Source of the DNA: Escherichia phage cardinal
Length of the DNA stretch: 64,000 nt
Sequence record: PQ567651.1
Reading direction: 5' to 3' (one strand)
Shown: piece by piece, positions 398 to 22,933 of the stretch
How positions within the stretch are numbered: position 1 is the stretch's first letter
Layout of the letters: each line of letters starts with the position of its first letter
The notes under the pieces: generated by a model
Database searches by the model: none
What the model was told of the DNA's origin: nothing
Seen by the model: the letters and a program-made list of their open reading frames with translations, nothing else
Made by a program: the position numbers and the translations under genes

Positions 398-1006
398 ATG
401 ACTCAAAAAGTTGCATATCAAGTAGATCGTGAAGATGGTGAAGGTAGTGTTGTAGTTTTTGATACACATGGTCTTGCAGCAAGACGCAAAGGCGCTTGTC
501 TACTGGACATTGGTGGTGAAGATGAATACTGCACTGTACGTAGAGTAAAAGAATTTGATCAATATGCTGAAAAAGGTTTTGTACCCGTGAAAGCACTATT
601 AGAAGCTGGATGGTGGATACCTAGTGCACATGATTATGATATTTTGGAAGATACAGATGAATTCAACAGTGAAGATTTTGTTTTTTCTCTGGATGAAAAA
701 TGCGTTTGGAAAAACTGGGATGAAATGGAACGCCATGCTTATTTTATAAACGAAGCATTAGATCGTAAAACTTGGTTTGAAAATACAGTTAAAGCAGCGT
801 ATCCTCAATTTACTTTTATACAGTTTTGGGGTGGCCCACATCATATTACTCATACAGCATATTTCGAGTTCCCAGGTTCACGTTATAAAGGTACTGTTTA
901 TTGGGATTGGGACGAGGACAAAGAACCTTCTGCTCAAGACTTCCGTTGCTATGTTTGTCAAGGTGATCAAGAAGCCCTTGACAAGTACCTTAAAAGTCTG
1001 GTATAA
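398..1006 (+). CDS. hypothetical protein
   Basis: 202-aa ORF, purine-rich stretch before ATG, followed by hairpin terminator. Confidence 0.5.
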   Translation: MTQKVAYQVDREDGEGSVVVFDTHGLAARRKGACLLDIGGEDEYCTVRRVKEFDQYAEKGFVPVKALLEAGWWIPSAHDYDILEDTDEFNSEDFVFSLDEKCVWKNWDEMERHAYFINEALDRKTWFENTVKAAYPQFTFIQFWGGPHHITHTAYFEFPGSRYKGTVYWDWDEDKEPSAQDFRCYVCQGDQEALDKYLKSLV

Positions 1007-1023
1007 TCCGTAAAACTTAACCA

Positions 1024-1062: not shown

Positions 1063-1617
1063 ATGGGTTTTGATGATATGTTATTATATGAGGAGGCTTG
1101 TGTGAAAGAAGCTATGGCTTTACCAGTTTTATCTATTGATATTACAACAGTAGACACTTTTTCAGATTGTGAAACGTGTGGATCGTATTCAAGTATTGTA
1201 CATGTGGTCTGTGGGGATTTAGGCACTTACGAAGATGGAGATTATGCAAGTTGTTTAGGTGATAATCAAGATGGTGAAGTGGCAAATGTTGCAAACTGGA
1301 TTGCTTCTAAGTTAAAAGAAAGAAATCGTCCGTTCCCTAATCTTCTTACACCAGAAGCTATGCTTAAAGCTGAACAAGAGATGTATGATTATGGTTATAA
1401 AGTAGATTATGACTATAATGATCCTAATTATAAAAAATTGAGTGACAAGTATTGGGAACTAGCTAACGCTTATGATAAATACTACTCTACAGAAAACATT
1501 GTTAAATTGTTTTTAGATTTTGGAGTAGAAATTAATTGGGATTTCGAAGAGGAAGAGCGTTACGACGCATCTTCTTGGGATGATGATTACGAAGAGGATA
1601 TTGAATGCGAAGAGTAA
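1063..1617 (+). CDS. acidic hypothetical protein
   Basis: ORF with GGAGG RBS before ATG at 1063; D/E-rich C-terminus. Confidence 0.5.
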   Translation: MGFDDMLLYEEACVKEAMALPVLSIDITTVDTFSDCETCGSYSSIVHVVCGDLGTYEDGDYASCLGDNQDGEVANVANWIASKLKERNRPFPNLLTPEAMLKAEQEMYDYGYKVDYDYNDPNYKKLSDKYWELANAYDKYYSTENIVKLFLDFGVEINWDFEEEERYDASSWDDDYEEDIECEE

Positions 1618-2417
1618 TTTTTGTTAGTGGCGCAGGACTATCTGTGGATAGCGGTATCCCAGCTTTTAGAACAGATACTTCTTCAGGGGAGGCGTTATGG
1701 TCTTCTTATGATCTTTCTGAGGTTTGTGACATTTTCAACTTCCGTGACGGTTATCAGCAAGAACAAGGTGTTCTTGATGCTATGGGTGGTTTAGATGCGG
1801 AAGGATATAACCTCTACCGTAAAACTCACGACTTTTACAATAAACGTCGCGTGGAATTAGAGAAAGTTGACCCGAATCCAGCACATCTTCAGATTGGAGA
1901 ATGGTTCAAAAAATATGGCCCAGAACGAATTATTAACATTACTACTAACGTGGATGACCTCCTTGAACGAGCAGGAGTAGATAGGGAAGAAGTGCTACAT
2001 GTGCACGGTTTTCTTCCTGAAATTACTTTTCAAAGAAAAGCCGGACAACCTACAATTGTAAAAGATGTTGGTTATCAAGCCATAGATGTAGATGACTACC
2101 ATTATGTAAAACCTAATGTAATTTTCTTTGGGGAAGCTGCTCCACTTTACACGGATATGTATTATATTTTTGATACACTGACGGCTCAAGATTTGGTTGT
2201 AGTAGTAGGATGTTCAAACCAAGTTATCAATTTTAATTGGGAATTATTCCCTGCACTTAATATGGGTACAAAAATGATCGTTGTTAACCCAGGAATTAAT
2301 TACGAAGAAACTCTTCTTTACGAAGATAGAGGAGTCTTTGTTTATCGAGAAAAGGCCGCAGATGCTTTTAGCAATCCTGCTTTCATAAAAATGATAGAAG
2401 ATCATTTGACTAAATAA
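1605..2417 (+). CDS. Sir2-family (sirtuin-like) NAD-binding protein lacking the zinc-ribbon module
   Basis: Motifs FVSGAGLSVDSGIPAFRTD (GAGxS..GIPxFR), ITTNVDDLL, VLHVHG, PNVIFFGE; no CxxC pairs. Confidence 0.7.
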   Translation: MRRVIFVSGAGLSVDSGIPAFRTDTSSGEALWSSYDLSEVCDIFNFRDGYQQEQGVLDAMGGLDAEGYNLYRKTHDFYNKRRVELEKVDPNPAHLQIGEWFKKYGPERIINITTNVDDLLERAGVDREEVLHVHGFLPEITFQRKAGQPTIVKDVGYQAIDVDDYHYVKPNVIFFGEAAPLYTDMYYIFDTLTAQDLVVVVGCSNQVINFNWELFPALNMGTKMIVVNPGINYEETLLYEDRGVFVYREKAADAFSNPAFIKMIEDHLTK

Positions 2418-2424
2418 CTTAACC

Positions 2425-2447
2425 AAGGGGCGAAAGCCCCTTTTCTT
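2425..2447 (+). terminator. rho-independent terminator
   Basis: aaggggc-gaaa-gcccctt hairpin plus T-rich tail. Confidence 0.5.
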
Positions 2448-3169: not shown

Positions 3170-3197
3170 ATACAAGAAAACCCGCCGAAGCGGGTTT
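3170..3197 (-). terminator. hairpin terminator (bidirectional-looking)
   Basis: aaacccgc-cgaa-gcgggttt hairpin with T-run on minus strand after gene 3203-3526. Confidence 0.45.
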
Positions 3198-11875: not shown

Positions 11876-12124
11876 TCACCAAACCGTTACTACTCCGGTA
11901 CGTAGCGTCTCTTCATGTCCCCAAATATCCGCTTCAATTGTAATTACAACCCACTCCGTGCTCCACTGAATACCAGTGATCTCTGTGAGATGTGCAGCTT
12001 CACGTTGTAGTGAGGCTGTGTCTGTAAGAGACGCACGTAAAGCATCCAATTCTTGTTCAATTTTGGTACGTTCTTCTTCGGTAATCGGTGTACCAACACG
12101 ATCAAAGGTAAAAATATCTAACAT
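11876..12124 (-). CDS. hypothetical protein
   Basis: 82-aa ORF, AGGAGGG RBS. Confidence 0.5.
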   Translation of the reverse strand: MLDIFTFDRVGTPITEEERTKIEQELDALRASLTDTASLQREAAHLTEITGIQWSTEWVVITIEADIWGHEETLRTGVVTVW

Positions 12125-12133
12125 ACTTCCCTC

Positions 12134-12343
12134 CTAATTATAATTCACATAGCGCCCACAATCCTGTTCAAGAAATTTTTCAGCATCCCTTTGGTGCTTT
12201 AACACGATGCACTGTTCTTTTTTAGCTTCACTTTCACGAGCTTCTCTTGCCATATACTCACCTAAACGAATGATACTAGAGAATAACACGTATGCAAGAA
12301 TAAGACAAACAGTGATTGCACAGAAAGTTTTAAACTTAACCAT
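12134..12343 (-). CDS. small membrane-anchored protein (paralog of 7124-7348)
   Basis: hydrophobic N-terminus; C-terminal EQCIVLKHQRDAEKFL...YVNYN matches EKCIILKHKKQAEDFL...YIDYE; GGAGGA RBS. Confidence 0.5.
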   Translation of the reverse strand: MVKFKTFCAITVCLILAYVLFSSIIRLGEYMAREARESEAKKEQCIVLKHQRDAEKFLEQDCGRYVNYN

Positions 12344-12686
12344 TGTATTCCTCCATATCACGAATACGATCAATCACCCATTGTACACGTTCTTTATTAA
12401 GGTGTGCAATGCCTAGTTCTGTTTCCGTAAAGTAGTGCGAGAAATCCGTATTAAACGGATGTAAATGGTTCAAACCCGCTTTCTTAAATTGTTCCTTCAT
12501 TTCCTCTCGTACAGAGGATTGGAGCTTTGATACATTCTCAACATCTTTTATCCAAGCAATATTGTACAAGAAGTCTACAAGACACGTGCAAAGACCATAA
12601 TGCTTTTTGCTAAAGTTTGTATCTTCTTGTTCTAACCACCACTCATAAAATTGTAGCAAATAGGAGCTGCTTTTCATGTTACACAC
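12336..12686 (-). CDS. hypothetical protein
   Basis: 116-aa ORF, AGGAGA RBS (possible GTG start). Confidence 0.45.
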   Translation of the reverse strand: MCNMKSSSYLLQFYEWWLEQEDTNFSKKHYGLCTCLVDFLYNIAWIKDVENVSKLQSSVREEMKEQFKKAGLNHLHPFNTDFSHYFTETELGIAHLNKERVQWVIDRIRDMEEYNG

Positions 12687-12699
12687 TTTATTATTCTCC

Positions 12700-12999
12700 T
12701 TAATACCAGTCTACGATCACTGAATCTACAAAGCCCTCTTTGGTGTTTAAAGCATACACCTTACTAAGCCCATGCTCTCGTAGTGCTTCCATAGCAAGAT
12801 CAATCAAATCAACTTGTCGTTTCTTTGCTTGTTCATTTTTTGGATAGTCATCCAAACCGAAAACAGACGGTTTAAATGCTTTGGAGTATTTGCCAGTTTT
12901 AGCCTGATCATAACAGTCCTGAATAATTTCCTCAATAGGAAACCATAAACCTTCTCCACTTTGCTTTGCAATACAGCGCAGTTTTTCTGTAATAGTCAT
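12700..12999 (-). CDS. hypothetical protein
   Basis: 99-aa ORF, AGGAGAGG RBS. Confidence 0.5.
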   Translation of the reverse strand: MTITEKLRCIAKQSGEGLWFPIEEIIQDCYDQAKTGKYSKAFKPSVFGLDDYPKNEQAKKRQVDLIDLAMEALREHGLSKVYALNTKEGFVDSVIVDWY

Positions 13000-13208
13000 T
13001 CTTCCTCTCCTTTCAATTTACACTCAAAGATACCATTCTTAATGTTATCTGTCAAATAAAGGCTATCTTCTATCTCTTCTTTTGTATACACATAAGCCTC
13101 CTTTTCCACGTCTGTCAGACCTTGCATCGGAGCTAGTAGCCACCAGCCCCGCCAGTCAAACATAGGAGACTTATCAGATACACGAAGAATGTATCTGTCA
13201 TTACACAT
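12996..13208 (-). CDS. hypothetical protein
   Basis: 70-aa ORF. Confidence 0.45.
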   Translation of the reverse strand: MCNDRYILRVSDKSPMFDWRGWWLLAPMQGLTDVEKEAYVYTKEEIEDSLYLTDNIKNGIFECKLKGEEE

Positions 13209-13211
13209 ATA

Positions 13212-13664
13212 TTATACGATGTTCACACTAATATCTGCAACACCAACAAGAGAATAGACTTCAACTACACTTTGTGTACGATCCAGCTTGTAACGTTTCG
13301 CCTCTTTTTCAACTTCCTCACGGGAGATGGTTTCCATGATCGGAACTCCATCCACTACAAGCAGGTATTTCTCTTCGTGTTTACTTTTTGGTGCTTCCTC
13401 TAAGACTTCTACAAAATACTCAAACTCACTTTTTGCAAGCAACGTGTAACACTGAAGAAAGTCTCCTTCATTTTGAGCGATAATTTCTTGTTCTCCTGCT
13501 AAGGATTGCAAAGCAGTGACACCATACCAATCATCCACATCTAATACACGAAAATAAGAATCACCTAAAAAAGAAGCAATCCTGCTATTGCACTCAGACA
13601 CGTTAGCAAACTTACGGATATAAGATGGGTTTTTAAAACGATACACTTTACCAATTTCAAACAT
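13212..13664 (-). CDS. hypothetical protein
   Basis: 150-aa ORF. Confidence 0.5.
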   Translation of the reverse strand: MFEIGKVYRFKNPSYIRKFANVSECNSRIASFLGDSYFRVLDVDDWYGVTALQSLAGEQEIIAQNEGDFLQCYTLLAKSEFEYFVEVLEEAPKSKHEEKYLLVVDGVPIMETISREEVEKEAKRYKLDRTQSVVEVYSLVGVADISVNIV

Positions 13665-13675
13665 TACACAAATCC

Positions 13676-13852
13676 TTATTGTTCAAGAGTAAAAGGAATG
13701 ATTTCACCATAGCTGTATTGCATGGCATTCACTTCTGCTTCTGCACGTTGTGCTAGTTCTAATGTTGCACAGATTTTGTAAGGTACAGTGCTGCATTGGC
13801 TCCAGCCTGGGGTATTCTTTGTTACTAAGTACACAGTAGTCTCTTTATCCAT
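13676..13852 (-). CDS. hypothetical small protein, 58 aa
   Basis: AAGAGGAAAAG RBS; not in track. Confidence 0.45.
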   Translation of the reverse strand: MDKETTVYLVTKNTPGWSQCSTVPYKICATLELAQRAEAEVNAMQYSYGEIIPFTLEQ

Positions 13853-13866
13853 CTTCTTTTCCTCTT

Positions 13867-14082
13867 TTAAACAGTATATTCGTGTGGAAGGAAAACATAG
13901 TCTTCTCCTTCAACAACATCAACTACTTCCCACTTCCAGCCAGGTACTTGGCTCATTGTCTTGAATGACACATAAGCAACTCCGCTGTAAGCGATATCGG
14001 CATCTAACATAAGAGGGAAAGCAACGTGTGTCAATCCCAGATAACCACAATTATTTTCAATACACACCTGAATGCTTTTCAT
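13867..14082 (-). CDS. hypothetical protein
   Basis: ORF trimmed to ATG next to upstream stop. Confidence 0.45.
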   Translation of the reverse strand: MKSIQVCIENNCGYLGLTHVAFPLMLDADIAYSGVAYVSFKTMSQVPGWKWEVVDVVEGEDYVFLPHEYTV

Positions 14083-14083
14083 G

Positions 14084-14542
14084 TTATGCTCCATTAAAGA
14101 CGGGGCGTGTAGCATTACGTTCATCATTCACTGTAATAAGGTTTTTCATAACCATAACACCCTGAATATAGCCTAACCAACGATGGCGTTTGGTTTCAGA
14201 CATACCATTACACCCATCCTGAATTTCATTCAACATCCACAGTAAGTGGGAAGCACCTGTTTCACTGGTATCTGGATCTTCTACAGAACTAAGAATCGTT
14301 TCATAGCGTTCACAAATTTCTGGGTAGAATTCATAATCCTGTTGTACATCTCGCATTTCTCGAATGAAGTGACGAGCAATAGGCTTCCCACGAAAATATT
14401 CATTGATGAAATCAATAACACACATCTCACTGCCTGTCACCACGGAAGGCGTTCCTATGTTAAATTGAACACTCACACCGCATTCTTTTACAAGATTATG
14501 TACACGCTCAGTGTTAGCAAGATACAAAGATACAGTTTTCAT
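14084..14542 (-). CDS. hypothetical protein (first gene of leftward block)
   Basis: 152-aa ORF next to the large non-coding region. Confidence 0.5.
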   Translation of the reverse strand: MKTVSLYLANTERVHNLVKECGVSVQFNIGTPSVVTGSEMCVIDFINEYFRGKPIARHFIREMRDVQQDYEFYPEICERYETILSSVEDPDTSETGASHLLWMLNEIQDGCNGMSETKRHRWLGYIQGVMVMKNLITVNDERNATRPVFNGA

Positions 14543-15000
14543 TTACACCTCTCATTAGTAGTTTGTTATGCGCGATATTGCATATTTTATGGAACACAGT
14601 GTACAGACATTTCTATTCAATGCAAGCATTATTTGCATCTTATAAATTTACGTCTCATGCCACACATCATACAGCGTCTTTTCATCTATTACAAGAACAG
14701 CAACCTAGGAACATCATTAATGGAGGGATTAGTATAGGGATTAGTATAGGATTTCCCTATCAATTATTCTATATATACCTAATATTTTTAACACACCCCT
14801 TTGTACATAATATAGACAAATAAATATCTATGCCACAAAAATTTTCTGGTATACCCGATTTATTTCGACACACCCCCTTTTCATAAGCGTAAAGTCAATA
14901 ATATCAATAACTTGCCGCAAAATACTGCTCGCTTGCGAGAGGTGCTTAACGCGATTTTCAGCGCCCCCCCGATTTCTGCCGACCGTCCCCCTCAAATATC

Positions 15001-16439: not shown

Positions 16440-16811
16440 TTACTGATAAGCTGGATCGTTTGTTATATCAATCCAATGAGATAAATTAATTTTATTTTTT
16501 GCTTTCATTTTCTCGATCAAACGTTCGGCTAATGTTTCTGAACGAATATAAACATGCTCGCTAAAATCTTGCCCCGTTTCTTCGTCGATCATTTCTCTAT
16601 ATTCAACCTTGCCGATAAACGCATAAGTTTTACCCGTGTACCAGTTATGTAAATGGATCTCGCATTTATAATCATCGCTATACCCTTCGGTTGTTCTAAC
16701 TTCAACCAAGTCACCTTTAAACACTGATAAGCACCACATAGGATCACGATCTACAGCGCCGTTAAAATCTTTACCGTTTACAGTAGCCGCCAGGTTGATG
16801 ATATTGCTCAT
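16440..16811 (-). CDS. hypothetical protein
   Basis: 123-aa ORF with GAGGAA RBS. Confidence 0.55.
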   Translation of the reverse strand: MSNIINLAATVNGKDFNGAVDRDPMWCLSVFKGDLVEVRTTEGYSDDYKCEIHLHNWYTGKTYAFIGKVEYREMIDEETGQDFSEHVYIRSETLAERLIEKMKAKNKINLSHWIDITNDPAYQ

Positions 16812-16886
16812 GGTGATTCCTCGTTTACCGTTTAAAATGATTTGCCCTACACGATAACTATAAGTTAACAGAGGCTATAAAGCAAG

Positions 16887-17117
16887 TTATTTTTCAAAAA
16901 ATTTTTCTACTGTGATATTCTTCCCAGTGGGATTAGCTACTTTCAAAATTTTATCATGTACTGGACGCCCAAAAGAATAAGATCCGTATACAGTAAACCA
17001 ATAATCACCGTCAGGCTGTACTATCACCGCTGCATAGGGTACGCCTTTTTCGTTATTGCTGACAGAATAGATCACATTGCCGTTAATAGCTTCAGCGCGT
17101 TTAATTTGTTCGATCAT
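16887..17117 (-). CDS. hypothetical protein
   Basis: 76-aa ORF preceded by promoter/stem-loop cassette. Confidence 0.55.
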   Translation of the reverse strand: MIEQIKRAEAINGNVIYSVSNNEKGVPYAAVIVQPDGDYWFTVYGSYSFGRPVHDKILKVANPTGKNITVEKFFEK

Positions 17118-17134
17118 GATATGATTCCTATATT

Positions 17135-17195
17135 GAGCGGGAAACCACTTCCCGCCTTACGTGATACATCTTAGTATAAGGGCGATCCGGTGTCA
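17135..17195 (-). promoter_or_regulatory. promoter + 5' stem-loop cassette
   Basis: minus strand: TTGACA-N17-TAAGAT then GGCGGGAAGTGGTTTCCCGC hairpin before RBS. Confidence 0.6.
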
Positions 17196-17317
17196 ATAGG
17201 TAGAATTGTAAAGATTTGATAGTTTATTTCTTTGATGTTTTGTTATTTGATAGGTGGAAGCTATCAATATATAATAAGATCGTCCGGTGATTATCTTCCC
17301 CTGCTCCCAGGTGCCGC

Positions 17318-17352
17318 CCGTTCAATAAGCATAACAAAAAACAGGACAAAAA
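17318..17352 (-). terminator. hairpin terminator after gene 17373-17576
   Basis: acagg...cctgt stem followed by T-run on minus strand. Confidence 0.4.
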
Positions 17353-17372
17353 CAAGCCCTGTTTTGTAAAGA

Positions 17373-17576
17373 TTAGATGATCTGCATATCCTCCACGATA
17401 ATTTCTAATTTCCAAACAAGATGATCTAAGCTCCCTGATAAAAATGATTCCGATACATAACCGCCATCTGACACCGTAGCAAGGATCTCGCCATTTGCTT
17501 GCTCTTTGATTTGAACATCCAGGCGGTTAGCCTTTGCTTTATTCAGGACGGCGATCAGGCGGTTAGCTGTAGTCAT
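17373..17576 (-). CDS. hypothetical protein
   Basis: 67-aa ORF with GGAAGGAAA RBS. Confidence 0.5.
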   Translation of the reverse strand: MTTANRLIAVLNKAKANRLDVQIKEQANGEILATVSDGGYVSESFLSGSLDHLVWKLEIIVEDMQII

Positions 17577-17590
17577 GGTGTTTTCCTTCC

Positions 17591-17654
17591 AGTTGTGAGC
17601 GGCACTATTGCCGCCCTACGAAATACATTCTACCCGATTTATAATTGTTGTCAA
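17591..17654 (-). promoter_or_regulatory. promoter + 5' stem-loop cassette
   Basis: TTGACA-N16-TAGAAT then GGGCGGCAATAGTGCCGCTC hairpin. Confidence 0.55.
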
Positions 17655-17655
17655 A

Positions 17656-17925
17656 CTATTTTTTCAAGCTCGACCAGTCAAAACACGGGGCGATCTCGTT
17701 AAAACTTGTACCATGTAAAGCACATAATTTTTTAGCAATAGCCGCCGTAACCTGGCGTTGTACGCGCGGATCTGCTACTGATTGGAGAAAATAGGCGGTT
17801 TTATATGTGATCATGCTTTCGCCTGTTTCCTTGTTAACGTGGTGCACGGTTTTAGCCTTATCATCTTTTACCAGGGTGTAACCGGATTCGATGGCCTTGA
17901 TTGCAACGTCCAAAGATATTTTCAT
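17656..17925 (-). CDS. hypothetical protein
   Basis: 89-aa ORF. Confidence 0.5.
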   Translation of the reverse strand: MKISLDVAIKAIESGYTLVKDDKAKTVHHVNKETGESMITYKTAYFLQSVADPRVQRQVTAAIAKKLCALHGTSFNEIAPCFDWSSLKK

Positions 17926-17972
17926 GATTTACCTCTTTATTGACGGCGGGGAATACTCCCCCGCCTTATTAA

Positions 17973-18143
17973 TTACTCTTCATCGTCGCCGTTATAGTAT
18001 TCAATGCCGTTTTCATCGGTTACAGTAATGTTAACGCCACCGATAGCAACACGATCACGGGCAAACGTCATGGCTTCATTTAAATCTTCAGACCAAAAAA
18101 TATTGTGACCTTTGCGCGATACATAAAACATAGTTGGGATCAT
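17973..18143 (-). CDS. hypothetical small protein, 56 aa
   Basis: ATG after cassette at 18166-18226; not in track. Confidence 0.45.
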   Translation of the reverse strand: MIPTMFYVSRKGHNIFWSEDLNEAMTFARDRVAIGGVNITVTDENGIEYYNGDDEE

Positions 18144-18165
18144 GATTTGTTTCTCTTCTGTTGTG

Positions 18166-18226
18166 AGCGGGAAACCATTTCCCGCCCTATGTGATAAACT
18201 TTACTACGTTGTTTGCCTAGTGTCAA
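18166..18226 (-). promoter_or_regulatory. promoter + 5' stem-loop cassette
   Basis: TTGACA-N17-TAAAGT then cacatag-GGCGGGAAATGGTTTCCCGC. Confidence 0.6.
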
Positions 18227-18227
18227 A

Positions 18228-18512
18228 TTATTTTTTAATGTTTTGCCCTACAAAATTGATCACTTCCTTAAGCTGTTTCTCAGTCATGATCGTGCCTGGT
18301 AATTCTTCTTTGATTTCTTCCGGTAGATAGATATTACCGCGCCAGGTTAATAAACAACCGTTTTGATCTTCGCAGATAGAATAAGAGAAGATCCACTCAT
18401 TATCATTCTCAAGCTCCCAAAAGCACAAAAAATCTTCTTTCCCTAAATTTTCAACGGTTAAACATAATCCGCGACGTGCTGCATAGTTGGAAAGTGCTTT
18501 TGTGATCTTCAT
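18228..18512 (-). CDS. hypothetical protein
   Basis: 94-aa ORF. Confidence 0.5.
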   Translation of the reverse strand: MKITKALSNYAARRGLCLTVENLGKEDFLCFWELENDNEWIFSYSICEDQNGCLLTWRGNIYLPEEIKEELPGTIMTEKQLKEVINFVGQNIKK

Positions 18513-18532
18513 AGCTTATCTCTTCTGTTAAG

Positions 18533-18594
18533 GCGGGGAAACCATTTCCCCGCTCTATGAGATACAATATACTATCTGTTAGGTGTGCTGTCAA
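18533..18594 (-). promoter_or_regulatory. promoter + 5' stem-loop cassette
   Basis: TTGACA-N17-TATATT then GCGGGGAAATGGTTTCCCCGCC. Confidence 0.6.
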
Positions 18595-18918
18595 TCAATA
18601 ATCTTTAAGATTTTCTACATTTACAAAAGTGCGTTTATTTTCTAAGTTTTCGCCGTACCATTGCCCCATGTTGATTTCTGCGGTGCGCAACCAGGACATG
18701 CCGCGCTCTATCTTTTTACTTGCAATCTCGATCCGGCTTTTGCATAGTGCTTTCGCTTGCAATGTAAAAACACTATTGCCCTGTAATGCTTCCAGGTCAT
18801 CATGTGCAAGGCGATACTCTTTAAAGCCTGATTCTATCATTTCAATAGCATCAAGTAAACGCGCGCGATGATAGAAAAAATCAGAGTTATCCAAATAAAC
18901 ACCGATCACAGATTTCAT
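18595..18918 (-). CDS. hypothetical protein
   Basis: ORF from ATG (MKSVIGVY) with AAAGGG RBS. Confidence 0.5.
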   Translation of the reverse strand: MKSVIGVYLDNSDFFYHRARLLDAIEMIESGFKEYRLAHDDLEALQGNSVFTLQAKALCKSRIEIASKKIERGMSWLRTAEINMGQWYGENLENKRTFVNVENLKDY

Positions 18919-19247
18919 AATTTTACCCTTTTGTTTGCGGCCTTTGCCGTTTTCAAGATATAGTTTAAAGCATAACAAAAAATTGTCAAGCCTTTAAAGC
19001 GTACAACTATAAAACCTATTAAAACACAATGTATAACAACATGGCTATAGTAGCAATACAACATAAAGCCATGCTTGTTTTCCTTCCTTCCTCGTATGCT
19101 GGATTTATTACGCTATATTGTACGGGAATAATTTTCATGCTGTTTCCTTAATGTCTTAAAACGTGGTTTACAATAGAAACAAGCATACAGAAGAAAAAAG
19201 ATCCTGTCAATAAGATACCGAAAAATAAATGTAAATAGGGCATGGTT

Positions 19248-19550
19248 TTACTCCTTAAAAAAATCATTGACAATTAAACTGATAACGCCCAGCACCAGAT
19301 CACCAGGTAGTGCCGCGCTTTCGTTGTTGCTTGTTTGCACTTCCTCACTAGTACCAGCACGATAGATTGCATGGTAAGCAATAGTATAATAACCTTTCGT
19401 TATTTCTTTAAGATTAATGATTAGCACGTTATTTGTTTCATCTTGAAACAATTTAGCGGTGATAGTATTGTTTTCTTTTACACTATCGACTTTTATTGAT
19501 GGATCATTTACACCAGAAAAAAGAAAAAACGTTTTAGCTATGCCGTTCAT
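19248..19550 (-). CDS. hypothetical protein
   Basis: 100-aa ORF with AAGGAGA RBS; TTGACA-N15-TATAAG upstream. Confidence 0.5.
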   Translation of the reverse strand: MNGIAKTFFLFSGVNDPSIKVDSVKENNTITAKLFQDETNNVLIINLKEITKGYYTIAYHAIYRAGTSEEVQTSNNESAALPGDLVLGVISLIVNDFFKE

Positions 19551-19597
19551 GTAGTTCTCCTTTGTTGTGTGTATCTTATAACGTGCTTTCTATGTTG

Positions 19598-19999
19598 TCA
19601 ATCTTTTATCTCGGTGCATTTTGCCAGGGTATACGTTGCAAGTGCTGACACTAGTTTTTCATTGCTACGATCTGCGGCTGTACTGTGTACTTTTTGAATA
19701 CTTTTTAACCACGGCGTAAAATTTTGAGTAGTCAGCACACTGGTAATAATTTCACATGGCACATCTTCATTTAAGCCGTTAACAATAGATTTATCTATTT
19801 TTGCCGTTAGTTGTGTAACAGCACCATAAGCGATCATGTGTGAATCCTCCATGATTTCATCGGGGATCGCATTATTAATAAGCATGACGTTTTCCATTGC
19901 ATCAACGGCGCTTAATTCTGCTACTGTGGAGGATATCGCCGCGCTAGATGTTCCAACCATGCCAAAAGAGATTAAACCAGCGATCAATAATTTTTTCAT
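19598..19999 (-). CDS. secreted/periplasmic hypothetical protein
   Basis: N-terminal signal peptide MKKLLIAGLISFGMVGTSSAA. Confidence 0.55.
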   Translation of the reverse strand: MKKLLIAGLISFGMVGTSSAAISSTVAELSAVDAMENVMLINNAIPDEIMEDSHMIAYGAVTQLTAKIDKSIVNGLNEDVPCEIITSVLTTQNFTPWLKSIQKVHSTAADRSNEKLVSALATYTLAKCTEIKD

Positions 20000-20007
20000 T
20001 TCTTGCC

Positions 20008-20190
20008 TCATATATGTTTTATTGAGATTATATTGTCACTATATACAACGTTTTTCAACGTGTCAATAAAAATCTTATTGCCTTCAATCCCCAGGATCAC
20101 GCCGCTAGTTATGAAGCCATATTGATCACGATATCGGGCGCATAACCTTTGCCCCTGGGCTAGTGCCTTGCTTATTTCGTCTAATTTCAT
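20008..20190 (-). CDS. hypothetical protein
   Basis: 60-aa ORF with AGGAG RBS. Confidence 0.45.
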   Translation of the reverse strand: MKLDEISKALAQGQRLCARYRDQYGFITSGVILGIEGNKIFIDTLKNVVYSDNIISIKHI

Positions 20191-20283
20191 TTTTAAAGCT
20201 CCTGTAAAGCCGTCTAACGTTGATTTATAGGCTTATCCTGGCGTTACCATTGCCTATGGGTAACAAGCCTCTATATAAGCTAA

Positions 20284-20308
20284 AAGGGCGCTTATTGCGC
20301 CCTTTTTT
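20284..20308 (-). terminator. bidirectional hairpin terminator
   Basis: gggcgc-ttatt-gcgccc flanked by T-runs on both strands. Confidence 0.5.
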
Positions 20309-20309
20309 G

Positions 20310-20447
20310 TTATTCGTTCCAGTATCTTTTTGTGCTGCGATCTCTTTTTGTTTTGTTCCGCTTGTCGCCTTTTTTGGTGATCTCTTCGTTCCAATTTTTA
20401 CGCGCCTTGCTGCGGTTGAATTTTTCGATCTGCTGTGATGCGTTCAT
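20310..20447 (-). CDS. very basic small protein, 45 aa
   Basis: MNASQQIEKFNRSKARKNWNEEITKKGDKRNKTKRDRSTKRYWNE; AAGAGGAAG RBS. Confidence 0.4.
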   Translation of the reverse strand: MNASQQIEKFNRSKARKNWNEEITKKGDKRNKTKRDRSTKRYWNE

Positions 20448-20462
20448 GTTTCTTCCTCTTAA

Positions 20463-20822
20463 TTACGCCACGTTATGCTGTTTTGCCAGGATTACGATCA
20501 TGCTTGCAATATATAACCAATAATTTTCCCGCTCACGGGTAACGGTTGTTTCTTTGCTTGTTTCTTTTATGTACTTCCATTCAATTAACAAGTGATCGAT
20601 CTCGTTATAATCAAAAGCAATATTGATTTCTGACGGTAAACCTTGTAACCAGGAGGCTATCGCCTTGATCATGTTGTGATTGTAACGTTTTTGATTATCG
20701 GGATACCAGTATTCAGATGTAAAACGGCGCATCAGTTCGGTGATCTTTTCTTTTTCTGTTGTAGTACCCTCAAAAGAAATAGCCGACACAATGTAAGTTT
20801 TAATTGCTTTTACTGATTTCAT
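20463..20822 (-). CDS. hypothetical protein
   Basis: 119-aa ORF. Confidence 0.5.
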   Translation of the reverse strand: MKSVKAIKTYIVSAISFEGTTTEKEKITELMRRFTSEYWYPDNQKRYNHNMIKAIASWLQGLPSEINIAFDYNEIDHLLIEWKYIKETSKETTVTRERENYWLYIASMIVILAKQHNVA

Positions 20823-20842
20823 AATCTTATCTCTTTATTGTT

Positions 20843-20901
20843 GGCGGGAAACCATTCCCCGCCGTTGTTGTTACTTTACTTATAAATGATGCTACTGTCA
20901 A
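20843..20901 (-). promoter_or_regulatory. promoter + 5' stem-loop cassette
   Basis: TTGACA-N17-TAAAGT then GGCGGGGAATGGTTTCCCGCC. Confidence 0.6.
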
Positions 20902-20908
20902 ACGGATA

Positions 20909-21079
20909 TTATTTGTTTTTTAACGTTAATGTTCCCAGCTTATCAGCGTGACGCAGACCAGGAAAGATCCATTTTCCTGATTCATCTTTTACCGGGGCTT
21001 TAAGCGTAGCGCCCAGGTTGGCGGCATTAACTTTACGTGCAACGTTGCGAGCGGCTTCACGGGTAGCGAAAGTGATCAT
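20909..21079 (-). CDS. hypothetical small protein, 56 aa
   Basis: AAGAGGAAAA RBS; not in track. Confidence 0.4.
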   Translation of the reverse strand: MITFATREAARNVARKVNAANLGATLKAPVKDESGKWIFPGLRHADKLGTLTLKNK

Positions 21080-21103
21080 GATGTTTTCCTCTTCTCTTTG
21101 TTA

Positions 21104-21165
21104 GGCGGTGGGCTATTCCACCGCCTTGATGAATACAGTTTACTTTATTTTTGCAGTATTGCAAG
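21104..21165 (-). promoter_or_regulatory. promoter-like + 5' stem-loop cassette (variant)
   Basis: GGCGGTGGAATAGCCCACCGCC hairpin with TTGCAA-N16-TAAACT upstream. Confidence 0.45.
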
Positions 21166-21170
21166 CGGTT

Positions 21171-21386
21171 TTATGAAATAAATGTCAAAGTAAAATCATA
21201 ATCTTTTGACAGTTTATATTGCACCTTGTTACCGTATATGTCACCTTTACGTAAAGATCCGCGAATACCTATTACATCCTTTACATCTTTAAGATTTTTC
21301 ACGCCTGTAATGTCTTTATTGAAATGATCGTGATCAGAAAATAAAACCTGCTTTGCATTTTTTAACAGTGTGCGGATATTAGCCAT
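21171..21386 (-). CDS. hypothetical protein
   Basis: 71-aa ORF. Confidence 0.5.
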   Translation of the reverse strand: MANIRTLLKNAKQVLFSDHDHFNKDITGVKNLKDVKDVIGIRGSLRKGDIYGNKVQYKLSKDYDFTLTFIS

Positions 21387-21405
21387 TTGATAATCTCTCT
21401 TACTA

Positions 21406-21464
21406 GGGGCGGCACTATTGCCGCCCTATGCATTACATTTTACTGATTTTAGTTATCTTGTCAA
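21406..21464 (-). promoter_or_regulatory. promoter + 5' stem-loop cassette
   Basis: TTGACA-N16-TAAAAT then GGGCGGCAATAGTGCCGCCCC. Confidence 0.6.
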
Positions 21465-21472
21465 TATTATTT

Positions 21473-21700
21473 TTAGTTTAATTGATCCAGGCACAACAAG
21501 CGATCAACATTCAGATCGGTTAGGCTAATCGTTGGCACCTGGTAGGATTCGATGTACTCAACGCTCGACCATTGCCCGAAGTTAGCGACCGCCCAGCTAT
21601 TCAAGGAAGAGTGAAGATCATCCCCTTTCTTCTCGGTGATAACTGCTACTACCTGGGAGCTTCCAACCGTACCGGATACGCGAACAATAACGATAGCCAT
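21473..21700 (-). CDS. hypothetical protein
   Basis: 75-aa ORF. Confidence 0.5.
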   Translation of the reverse strand: MAIVIVRVSGTVGSSQVVAVITEKKGDDLHSSLNSWAVANFGQWSSVEYIESYQVPTISLTDLNVDRLLCLDQLN

Positions 21701-21721
21701 AATGATAACCTTTCTTTGATT

Positions 21722-21781
21722 TGGCGGGAAACCATTTCCCGCCCTATGTGATATATCTTACACTAATTTAAAACGTTGTCA
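21722..21781 (-). promoter_or_regulatory. promoter + 5' stem-loop cassette
   Basis: TTGACA-N16-TAAGAT then atatcacatag-GGCGGGAAATGGTTTCCCGCC. Confidence 0.65.
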
Positions 21782-21877
21782 AATTATTTTCTATTTCTTC
21801 CGTAATAGCCCAATTTATGATCTAAGCTAAAACGTTTTGTGAGATAGGTCGAACGATGTTTCATTTTTATGTCTCCT

Positions 21878-22117
21878 TTACATTCCAACCATAGCGGCAC
21901 GGATCGCGGTTTTACTGAACTTGAATCCGTCTGGCGTTTTATCTTGATCCATACTTTCAAGAAATAACATCATATCCCGCGCTGCGTCATTCTTATTGGT
22001 GTTAGCTGCGATAAATTCACGCGCAAGATTATAAAAACCTTCATCGTTGTTGATCCAAAGGCTTACATTCCAATGAGTTTTGTTTTTGTGACCTAAGAAC
22101 ATTTTAGATTTAGCCAT
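21878..22117 (-). CDS. hypothetical protein
   Basis: 79-aa ORF. Confidence 0.5.
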   Translation of the reverse strand: MAKSKMFLGHKNKTHWNVSLWINNDEGFYNLAREFIAANTNKNDAARDMMLFLESMDQDKTPDGFKFSKTAIRAAMVGM

Positions 22118-22140
22118 GATGTTAATCTCTTTTTCAGTGA

Positions 22141-22199
22141 GGCGGGAACTATTCCCGCTCTCGATATAAGTATTATATGCTTTTTATTCGTGCTGTCAA
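22141..22199 (-). promoter_or_regulatory. promoter + 5' stem-loop cassette
   Basis: TTGACA-N16-TATAAT then GCGGGAATAGTTCCCGCC. Confidence 0.65.
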
Positions 22200-22205
22200 T
22201 GCTTT

Positions 22206-22571
22206 TTATAAATCTTTTTTACGTTTAACATCGCTTGCATGACTGTATACAGCGATCCCATTATCACGGCAAAAACGGGAAAGATACGCGCCGCGTGAAA
22301 ACTCTTTGCCCTCCAGGTTGATAACCTTGCTAAACTCTTCCAGGGCGACGGTATCAAAATGATCCCCATAACCATATTGAAACGGAACGTTAACGACTTC
22401 AATCAGTTTACCGCCGATCTCAACGTCAACCATCAAAGAGAAATAAGTATTACCATAAGACTTTTGAAACCAGCGACGGGCGCTAATATGTACCGCTTCA
22501 ATGCTGGATAGTTCAATTTTAGCAGTGTTAGCCAGGGTAGCATAAGCAGAAACATTGATATTTTTAGCCAT
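22206..22571 (-). CDS. hypothetical protein
   Basis: 121-aa ORF with AAAGAGA RBS. Confidence 0.5.
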   Translation of the reverse strand: MAKNINVSAYATLANTAKIELSSIEAVHISARRWFQKSYGNTYFSLMVDVEIGGKLIEVVNVPFQYGYGDHFDTVALEEFSKVINLEGKEFSRGAYLSRFCRDNGIAVYSHASDVKRKKDL

Positions 22572-22666
22572 AGTCTTTAATCTCTTTTGATTAGTTAGGA
22601 GTATTCCCGATAAAAGTTATTATGCTTGTACTATCGTTCGTTGTCAATAGCACAAGACTAAAACTT

Positions 22667-22846
22667 TTAACGATAATCATCATAGGCTTTATTGACCTGG
22701 CGAATATAGCATTCAAAAGCTAGATCAATAGATTTATATTCACGGATATAATCACCATAGGAAACCACATACATTTCTATAGCTTCCTCATATGCCAGGA
22801 TGATAGAATCTAAACCTACGATCTCAGTCTTTGCAATAATAGCCAT
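22667..22846 (-). CDS. hypothetical small protein, 59 aa
   Basis: ORF downstream of cassette 22934-22989; not in track. Confidence 0.4.
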   Translation of the reverse strand: MAIIAKTEIVGLDSIILAYEEAIEMYVVSYGDYIREYKSIDLAFECYIRQVNKAYDDYR

Positions 22847-22933
22847 GCTTTTATTCCTTAGTAATGTTTCAATCTATATAAGCATTATAGCTTACTGATT
22901 TCAGGTGTCAAGTGATTTTTTATTTCACCTTAT

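Follow-up and report, generated by a model that had tools for sequence, protein, structure and literature searches.

The zinc-free sirtuin of Escherichia phage cardinal: family, conserved residues, gene context and candidate activities

What might a sirtuin do in a phage when the cysteines that hold the structural zinc of its cellular relatives are gone? This question is raised by sir2, a gene near the start of a 64,000-nucleotide stretch of Escherichia phage cardinal (sequence record PQ567651.1), which was analysed as a whole and is called the window here. The open reading frame (ORF) list places the gene exactly at 1605..2417 on the + strand, where it encodes 270 aa between an ATG start and a TAA stop. 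A GAGGA Shine-Dalgarno sequence lies 7 nt 5' of the start codon, which overlaps the end of the upstream ORF by 13 nt. An original prediction, made from the letters of the DNA, had described a Sir2-like protein without its zinc-binding module and had judged that absence more typical of an enzyme that degrades nicotinamide adenine dinucleotide (NAD+), an NADase, or an ADP-ribosyltransferase, possibly a captured effector. We find that sir2 is a typical member of a known and annotated phage family, for which both the loss of zinc and a possible role other than deacetylation are already in print, and we tentatively read its product as an NAD+-dependent deacylase of class III (CobB/SIRT5) descent.

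Two earlier studies bear directly on this family. Skliros et al. (2016) modelled the KVP40/phiSt2 orthologue, reported that the zinc ligand was absent while the catalytic His and the acetyl-lysine tunnel were conserved, proposed a deacetylase role together with salt bridges that would stabilise the protein, and included T5 in their list of carriers (PMC5107563). Iyer, Burroughs, Anantharaman and Aravind (2022) described 'a distinct clade of sirtuins' among phages of proteobacteria, with rV5, Mydo, SP15 and Serratia phage BF as named examples, and predicted from gene neighbourhoods that its members remove RNA 2'-phosphates in the manner of KptA/Tpt1 during RNA repair (PMC9503650). In addition, a CRISPRi-ART screen of T5 called the orthologue T5.102 'Not Fit', that is, dispensable on the laboratory host (PMC11879866, supplementary file 16), and likewise the neighbouring T5.105 (phrog_1818), which sits where other T5-like phages have the HAD gene (PMC11879866).

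Family, conserved residues and the missing zinc site

The Pfam family SIR2 (PF02146) matches the window protein at E=3.7e-20, with 73 bits against a gathering cut-off of 24, and PHROG 2162, 'Sir2 (NAD-dependent deacetylase)', matches residues 1-269, its full length, at E=2.6e-99; as a sequence match to the sirtuin family, this is far beyond chance. The best NCBIfam model is 'NAD-dependent protein deacylase', and the best PDB sequence matches obtained with HMMER are Sir2Af2, E. coli CobB and SIRT5. The PHROG profile and the likeness to the T5 and rV5 members place the protein in the 'distinct clade' of Iyer et al. (2022), T5.102 being itself a phrog_2162 member. This clade, which includes T5.102, rV5 ORF84, the phi92/phAPEC8-like proteins, the KVP40/phiSt2 Sir2/CobB and the window sirtuin, has the zinc-less state in common throughout. 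All 54 clade members scanned against Pfam matched PF02146, and that scan returned no other family at E<=0.01. The features of the superfamily are present, namely a Rossmann fold with a small domain, the NAD+ motifs (GAGxS, xNxD, GxS and N) and the His of the HG motif, and the original label of a Sir2-family, NAD+-using phage protein without zinc ligands was correct.

Residue conservation was computed over 54 clade members, whose mean column identity was 60%, and the motifs below all lie on the + strand. The glycine-rich NAD+-binding motif and the start of the cofactor-binding loop, GAGLSVDSGIPAFR (aa 9-22; 1629..1670), were assigned from motif position and conservation; G9, A10, G11, S16, F21 and R22 are invariant and are shared by the zinc-bearing relatives. 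TTNVDDLL (aa 113-120; 1941..1964), assigned in the same way, is the counterpart of the TQNxD motif. Its N115 and D117 are invariant and so is T114, a clade-specific replacement of the consensus Q of the nearest zinc-bearing relatives. HVHG (aa 132-135; 1998..2009) aligns to the HG of CobB and Sir2Af2 and carries the predicted catalytic pair His134-Gly135, both invariant, and VIFFGE (aa 172-177; 2118..2135) is the FGE substrate-loop motif, with F174, F175 and E177 invariant. These four motifs had been listed in the original prediction, and all were found.

Two further motifs bear on the class of the enzyme and on its substrate. Y78-N-K-R81 (1836..1847) was recognised by the HMMER alignment of FYNKRR with FYNARR of CobB, and Y78, R81 and R82 are invariant. 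Y-x-x-R is the signature of class III, which in SIRT5 and CobB binds the carboxylate of succinyl- and malonyl-lysine; we take Y78 and R81 to be the counterparts of CobB Y92/R95 and SIRT5 Y102/R105. GCSNQVINFNWELFP (aa 202-216; 2208..2252), aligned to GSSLVVYPA of Sir2Af2, joins the GTS NAD+-binding motif to an altered substrate-binding strand, in which the clade has V-I-N after GTS in contrast to the usual V-Y-P of zinc-bearing relatives. The NAD+-binding residues G202, S204 and N228 are invariant. Because the nearest zinc-bearing relatives share the motifs FYxxRR, TQNVDxLxERAG, HxHG and FGExAPxY with the clade, the latter looks like a zinc-less offshoot of CobB-like enzymes. The window sirtuin is strongly acidic (net charge about -16, pI 4.7), clade members have a pI of 4.6-6.05 with a median of 4.9, against a median of 6.3 in 62 zinc-bearing relatives, and clade-specific conserved basic residues are few.

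The only cysteines of the window sirtuin are C41 and C203, and there is no CxxC, as the original prediction had stated; the four-cysteine structural zinc site of class III enzymes is absent. Between HG (135) and KPNV (169) there is no Cys and nothing that resembles a zinc site. The further claim that the zinc-binding module is missing is true of the ligands and knuckles and untrue of the module itself, of which a cysteine-free remnant remains at aa 136-168 (2010..2108, + strand), delimited by the hairpin of an AlphaFold2 model, alignment gaps and homologue clusters. In the model a beta-hairpin with strands 135-143 and 151-154 occupies the zinc-ribbon position at a predicted local distance difference test score (pLDDT) of ~95, and the HMMER alignment to Sir2Af2 opens two 3-residue gaps exactly at the CLDC and CRKC knuckles. 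Since the hairpin persists and the gaps fall on the knuckles, the zinc ligands and knuckles appear to have been lost while the scaffold of the small domain was kept. No alternative metal site was recognised in the hairpin, where His and Cys are nowhere conserved (position 166 is variable) and E139 is the sole invariant residue. CxxC occurs in 0 of the 120 closest homologue clusters. When 1.84 billion representatives were searched exhaustively, 0 of the 23 that matched at E<1e-30 had one, and relatives with two CxxC motifs a few residues past HG first appear at about E=1e-30. By these comparisons the loss of zinc ligands is a property of the whole phage family. The cluster members of the nearest zinc-less and zinc-bearing representatives are almost all metagenome proteins, from which cellular and phage origins are not separable.

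The AlphaFold2 model, built on 54 homologues, has a mean pLDDT of 91.2 and a predicted template modelling score of 0.88; confidence drops only at residues 23-29, where the cofactor-binding loop carries a short insert. CobB and Sir2Af1 are the best fold matches, with a target-normalised Foldseek TM-score of 0.84 to CobB. Structural comparison gave values of 21.7 for Sir2Af1, 19.4 for PfSir2A, 17-18 for SIRT4, SIRT2, SIRT1 and Hst2 and 14.5-15 for SirTM, and the defence Sir2 proteins followed with 13.4 (PsSIR2), 12.1 (HerA-Sir2), 11.4 (ThsA) and 10.2 (Avs5). Sequence and model alike place the window sirtuin closest to the class III deacylases (CobB, Sir2Af1, SIRT5), not to defence NADases or SirTMs. 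With CobB (PDB 1S5P, 6RXJ) and SIRT5 it shares the fold, GAGxS, HG, N-x-D, FGE and Y-x-x-R, as well as a similar size and a single domain pair. It differs from them in the lack of zinc ligands with deletion of both CxxC knuckles, in TTN for TQN, in its substrate strand, in its acidic pI and in the 3-4 residue cofactor-loop insert where pLDDT is low, and it is only 22-26% identical to them.

Defence Sir2 NADases such as ThsA, Sir2-HerA, DSR and the Sir2 of Avs5 also have a Sir2-type Rossmann domain without a zinc ribbon. The PADLOC defence models gave 0 families matching the window sirtuin even at E<=1, and the reading as a defence effector was rejected on that scan; the closest folds are not defence Sir2 proteins, and no fused or adjacent sensor or partner (SLOG, HerA, pAgo, TIR or STAND) was found at the window locus. 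SirTMs resemble the window protein in the sirtuin fold, in the use of NAD+ and in a bacterial or phage setting. These ADP-ribosylating enzymes keep the zinc domain and replace HG by QG (Rack et al. 2015; PMC4518038), whereas H134-G135 is invariant in the clade of the window sirtuin, and among the flanking ORFs 398-1006, 1048-1617 and 2461-2718, which have no Pfam domain, there is no macrodomain partner. In sirtuins the zinc is structural, not catalytic (PMC8556138). Given this, the blank PADLOC scan and the SirTM pattern of retained zinc with QG, the step from missing zinc to an NADase or ADP-ribosyltransferase is not supported. Structure prediction and comparison, which had been proposed as a check, agreed with the original prediction in showing no intact zinc module and departed from it in that the closest folds are CobB and Sir2Af1 and not defence Sir2.

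Distribution and gene neighbourhoods of the clade

Over its first 6 kb the window is ~98% identical to Escherichia phage muut and 96-98% identical to other Justusliebigvirus of the Stephanstirmvirinae (phi92/phAPEC8 group), whose records label the gene Sir2-like protein, sirtuin family protein or NAD-dependent deacetylase/deacylase. Orthologues were found with tblastn in 982 phage records, 911 of which cover at least 80% of the protein. The sirtuins of Salmonella phage UAB_1 and of muut are 99.6% and 97.8% identical to the window protein; identity falls to 65-77% in Phapecoctavirus, to 51-59% among T5-like Demerecviridae (57% in Stitch), to 46-55% in rV5-like/PVP-SE1-like phages (49% to rV5 ORF84), to about 36% in KVP40-like vibriophages and to 29-37% in jumbo phages. 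Such a distribution marks sir2 as a long-established gene shared by many phages, as opposed to a recent capture, and the idea of a captured effector does not fit conservation at 45-99% identity across several phage families. Two records in this comparison carry host labels that look doubtful: that of Campylobacter phage C7 (MG065658) has an rV5-level Sir2 orthologue (49% to the query), and the similar record of A140 (MG065674), of ~135-141 kb and labelled a Campylobacter jejuni phage, has an RNA ligase that shares 96.8% identity with the one in E. coli phage rV5.

Gene contexts were compared across 60 IMG/VR loci and several GenBank records, and it is in context only that the window sirtuin differs from the rest of the clade: it has a lineage-specific partner gene, as against RNA ligase, cREC and kinase in rV5-like phages and HAD_SAK_2 in T5-like phages. 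In rV5-like/PVP-SE1-like phages the order is metallophosphoesterase - Rnl1-type RNA ligase - cREC (PF20274) - AAA_33 kinase - Sir2 - ATP-dependent DNA ligase - MazG, and in the rV5-like phages NAMPT and Prs lie 5-6 kb upstream of Sir2. Downstream of Sir2, at a distance of 0-2.4 kb, the T5-like phages and two further lineages encode a phosphatase of the HAD_SAK_2 family (PF18143, 'Swiss-army-knife RNA repair'). In Stitch, the 171-aa CPT_Stitch112 (L004 7156-7671), called 'Sir2 (NAD-dependent deacetylase)' in RefSeq, is actually such a HAD_SAK_2 phosphatase (PF18143, E=7e-18), and the misannotation has probably spread through proximity to the real sir2.

The jumbo Salmonella phage 7t3 (L069 4510-6667) has the order NMNAT/ADP-ribose pyrophosphatase - NAMPT - ... 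- Acb1-like 2H phosphoesterase - Sir2 - one ORF - Nudt16-like Nudix, in which the 2H phosphoesterase (PF23474, an anti-CBASS family) is directly upstream of Sir2 and NMNAT/ADPRase and NAMPT are 2-4 kb upstream; this group looks like a compact NAD+/ADP-ribose module. NAMPT is directly upstream of Sir2 on the vibriophage-like contig L067, and in the KVP40-like VH7D the neighbours are thymidylate synthase, MazG, topoisomerase and metallophosphoesterase.

In muut, NAMPT and phosphoribosyl pyrophosphate (PRPP) synthetase (Prs) are encoded at 12026-14724 and a block of cREC - phosphoesterase - RNA ligase - kinase - DNA ligase - MazG at 16760-22912, both outside the window, with sir2 at 50.8 kb. The genes of this block are homologues of rV5 genes, syntenic with rV5 apart from Sir2, and lie ~30 kb from sir2; because the block matches the rV5 order minus Sir2, the phi92-like sirtuin seems to have been relocated by ~30 kb. 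RNA-end-processing neighbours occur in the rV5-like, T5-like and jumbo lineages and not in the window lineage, where the adjacent ORFs have no RNA ligase, cREC, kinase, HAD_SAK, 2H or Nudix domain. The RNA-repair neighbourhood is a property of the context of the clade, not of the protein.

The sir2 unit in the window

Within the window, the sequence signals suggest that sir2 is transcribed by the host RNA polymerase as the second of two genes in a compact unit, because a consensus promoter precedes the pair and a terminator-like hairpin ends it. The putative promoter, at 978..1007 on the + strand within the 3' end of ORF 398-1006, is a perfect TG-extended sigma-70 consensus (TTGACA-18-TATAAT). 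Perfect sigma-70 promoters number 3 in the window against 0.11 expected, the other two being at 22172-22199 and 22884-22911, both on the - strand. A GC-rich hairpin (1023-1045) follows just past the promoter, and then a GGAGGA ribosome-binding site; by blastn the promoter is kept in muut, PaulScherrer and two metagenomic relatives (L008, L009), and the cassette of promoter and hairpin is conserved in related phages. The intrinsic-terminator-like hairpin, AAGGGGCGAAAGCCCCTT followed by TTCTT, lies at 2425..2442 (+ strand), 8 nt past the sir2 stop.

The first gene of the unit, at 1063..1617 (+ strand), encodes a 184-aa protein of PHROG 9509, which has invariant C13, C36-x-x-C39, C64 and C182 and a poly-acidic C-terminal tail, and which is confined to phi92-like phages (5 clusters among 5.8 billion proteins). 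Its AlphaFold2 model (pLDDT 82) had no informative structural neighbour. PaulScherrer labels this partner 'putative aminoacyl-tRNA synthetase', for which the sole support is a sub-threshold PheRS B1 match (E=0.023). In muut a 741-bp HNH_3-like homing endonuclease gene, gp166 (L002 20044-20784), is inserted exactly between the partner and sir2; the insert is absent from the window (junction ~1605-1617), where the end of the partner protein and the beginning of Sir2 also depart slightly from those of muut.

Upstream of the unit, ORF 398-1006 (+) encodes a 202-aa protein of PHROG 8514, a homologue of which (~31% identity) is also directly upstream of sir2 in a second lineage (L051-L055, L059). 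That lineage has DprA-like, NinI-like and 'HisRS-like' genes on the opposite strand and a syntenic gene for a Dcm-like methyltransferase. The ORF was considered as a conserved partner of sir2 and rejected, the Dcm-like gene being syntenic as well and a terminator and promoter separating the ORF from sir2 in the window; its adjacency to sir2 is probably inherited synteny. Downstream, strong bidirectional terminator-like hairpins at 2786-2815 and 3178-3197, with stems of 13 and 8 bp, lie where the + strand operon, closing with ORF 2461-2718, gives way to a long block of small genes on the - strand.

Candidate activities and their significance

From the family, fold, conserved residues, loss of zinc ligands, distribution and gene context, which were all observed directly, we infer an activity, an acyl preference and targets. 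The agreement of the closest relatives, the fold, the invariant general-base His and the invariant Y-x-x-R and FGE motifs leads us to favour, tentatively, an active NAD+-dependent deacylase of class III descent, which would probably act on acidic acyl-lysines. Such an enzyme would bind NAD+ in the usual way and remove acyl groups, probably succinyl or malonyl, from lysines. The acyl oxygen would attack C1' of the nicotinamide ribose and nicotinamide would leave; the ribose 2'-OH, activated by His134, would then attack to form a cyclic intermediate, and the products would be O-acyl-ADP-ribose and free lysine. The NAMPT, Prs and NMNAT that these phages encode could recycle the nicotinamide released. 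No structural zinc would be needed for activity, and sir2, expressed as the second gene from the promoter of its own unit, would serve an accessory and not an essential function. The acidic character of the clade suits protein substrates better than RNA, as far as composition can tell, and the view that catalysis is independent of zinc was also reached in the modelling of the KVP40-type orthologue (PMC5107563).

Several points weigh against a deacylase of this kind. Mutating the zinc cysteines, or losing the zinc ligands, inactivates canonical sirtuins, and activity of the window protein assumes a hairpin that is stable without metal. The protein falls far short of the NCBIfam equivalog and subfamily cut-offs for CobB (93.7 bits against 243 for NF001753 and 77.9 against 320 for NF040867), and two family-wide changes lie near the active or substrate site, TQN to TTN and GTSxxVYP to GCSNQVINFNWELFP, so that the substrate may differ. 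A protein deacylase does not explain the RNA-end-processing neighbours in rV5-like, T5-like and jumbo phages. Since host CobB restricts T4 and lambda (Koyuncu et al. 2014; PMC4271551), CobB-like deacetylation is not obviously good for a phage. Our literature search found no biochemical or genetic study of this phage sirtuin clade apart from the T5 knockdown fitness call.

The neighbours left unexplained by a deacylase are the starting point of the published prediction for exactly this clade (PMC9503650), in which the sirtuin fold would serve as an analogue of Tpt1/KptA and complete a phage RNA-repair counter-defence against anticodon nucleases. After such a nuclease has cut a tRNA and the 2',3'-cyclic phosphate has been opened to a 2'-phosphate, a 2'-phosphate oxygen would attack C1' of NAD+, and the His-activated ribose 2'-OH would release ADP-ribose 1'',2''-cyclic phosphate, leaving a clean 2'-OH ready for ligation. 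The two-step chemistry parallels that of Tpt1, with NAD+ consumed, nicotinamide released and attack on ribose C1', and the substrate strand is remodelled across the clade. We reproduced RNA-repair contexts in three or four independent arrangements, including the downstream HAD_SAK_2 of the T5-like phages and two other lineages, the 2H and Nudix genes flanking Sir2 in 7t3, and the muut homologues of the rV5 metallophosphoesterase, RNA ligase, kinase, cREC and MazG. It is suggestive, too, that KptA occurs in 98 phage records, almost all of jumbo phages and none named Escherichia or Salmonella, where Sir2 abounds; among named phage groups the distribution of KptA largely complements that of the Sir2 clade. 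The window lineage itself fits less well, however: sir2 has no adjacent RNA-repair gene there and sits in its own promoter-to-terminator unit, with the RNA ligase cluster of muut ~30 kb off. The neighbourhoods elsewhere are general nucleotide and NAD+ islands (Nrd, Td, PhoH, MazG, DNA ligase, NAMPT), and therefore the linked genes may have their timing in common and not a pathway. An Rnl1-type ligase is found in 14 'Salmonella'-named records against 289 for Sir2, because of which T5-like phages probably carry the sirtuin without this ligase, and Pseudomonas and Streptomyces phages, which contribute 304 of the 821 ligase matches, are outside the ten most frequent organism names for Sir2. Tpt1/KptA enzymes have an unrelated ADP-ribosyltransferase fold with an Arg-His-Arg-Arg tetrad, neither of which is found in the Rossmann-fold window protein, and are basic and RNA-binding, whereas the window sirtuin is acidic with few conserved basic residues of the clade's own, unlike RNA-end enzymes, and keeps the Y-x-x-R acyl pocket and FGE loop unchanged. 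A functional analogue, as was proposed (PMC9503650), is conceivable, and on balance we rank removal of RNA 2'-phosphates by the window sirtuin as the main rival, somewhat less likely than deacylation. It is this published ADP-ribosyl-transfer-type chemistry on RNA (PMC9503650), and not the reason given in the original prediction, that keeps the idea of a non-deacetylase open.

Transfer of single ADP-ribose units to a host or phage protein or another macromolecule, as by SirTM or T4 Alt/Mod, would draw on an activity that some sirtuins have (PMC4518038) and on a practice common among phages, which often ADP-ribosylate host proteins (PMC9503650); the Nudix and 2H neighbours in jumbo phages could process ADP-ribose derivatives. 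Without the QG of SirTM, and with no macrodomain gene beside sir2, we consider this improbable. A free NADase that depletes or manipulates host NAD+, or a captured defence effector, appears quite improbable. The window protein is a stand-alone NAD+-binding enzyme and shares the lack of a zinc ribbon with defence Sir2 NADases, but the structures of the latter rank lower in the comparison, PADLOC gave no match and PF02146 is the only Pfam family. The same phages moreover invest in NAD+ synthesis (NAMPT, Prs, NMNAT), the opposite of depletion, the gene is old and widespread in lytic phages, and the invariant Y-x-x-R acyl pocket would be superfluous in a pure NADase. An inactive or structural relic, with a small domain destabilised by zinc loss, is very improbable, although mutation of the zinc cysteines kills canonical sirtuins: the catalytic and NAD+-binding residues are all invariant across phage families at 45-57% identity, AlphaFold2 is highly confident of the hairpin as well as of the model as a whole, and the length is kept in most records, so that purifying selection on an enzyme is suggested. 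The 'Not Fit' call for T5.102 in the genome-wide knockdown screen (PMC11879866) would suit a relic, but dispensability on a laboratory host is usual for accessory and counter-defence genes.

The finding in the window itself adds little, a Sir2-like annotation being present in nearly every related genome. Few accessory enzymes of large lytic enterobacterial and vibrio phages are shared as widely as its clade, which extends over T5, rV5, phi92, KVP40 and jumbo phages; several of these phages are used in therapy, and NAD+, which this enzyme family would consume, is central to many bacterial anti-phage systems. The moderate interest of the clade lies in the substrate of so widespread a phage enzyme. 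If the deacylase that we tentatively favour is the true activity, these phages edit the lysine acylation of their hosts; if removal of RNA 2'-phosphates is, sirtuins would gain a nucleic-acid repair activity and the sirtuin fold a new catalytic activity. Either reaction, if shown, would mean that a sirtuin can function without structural zinc.

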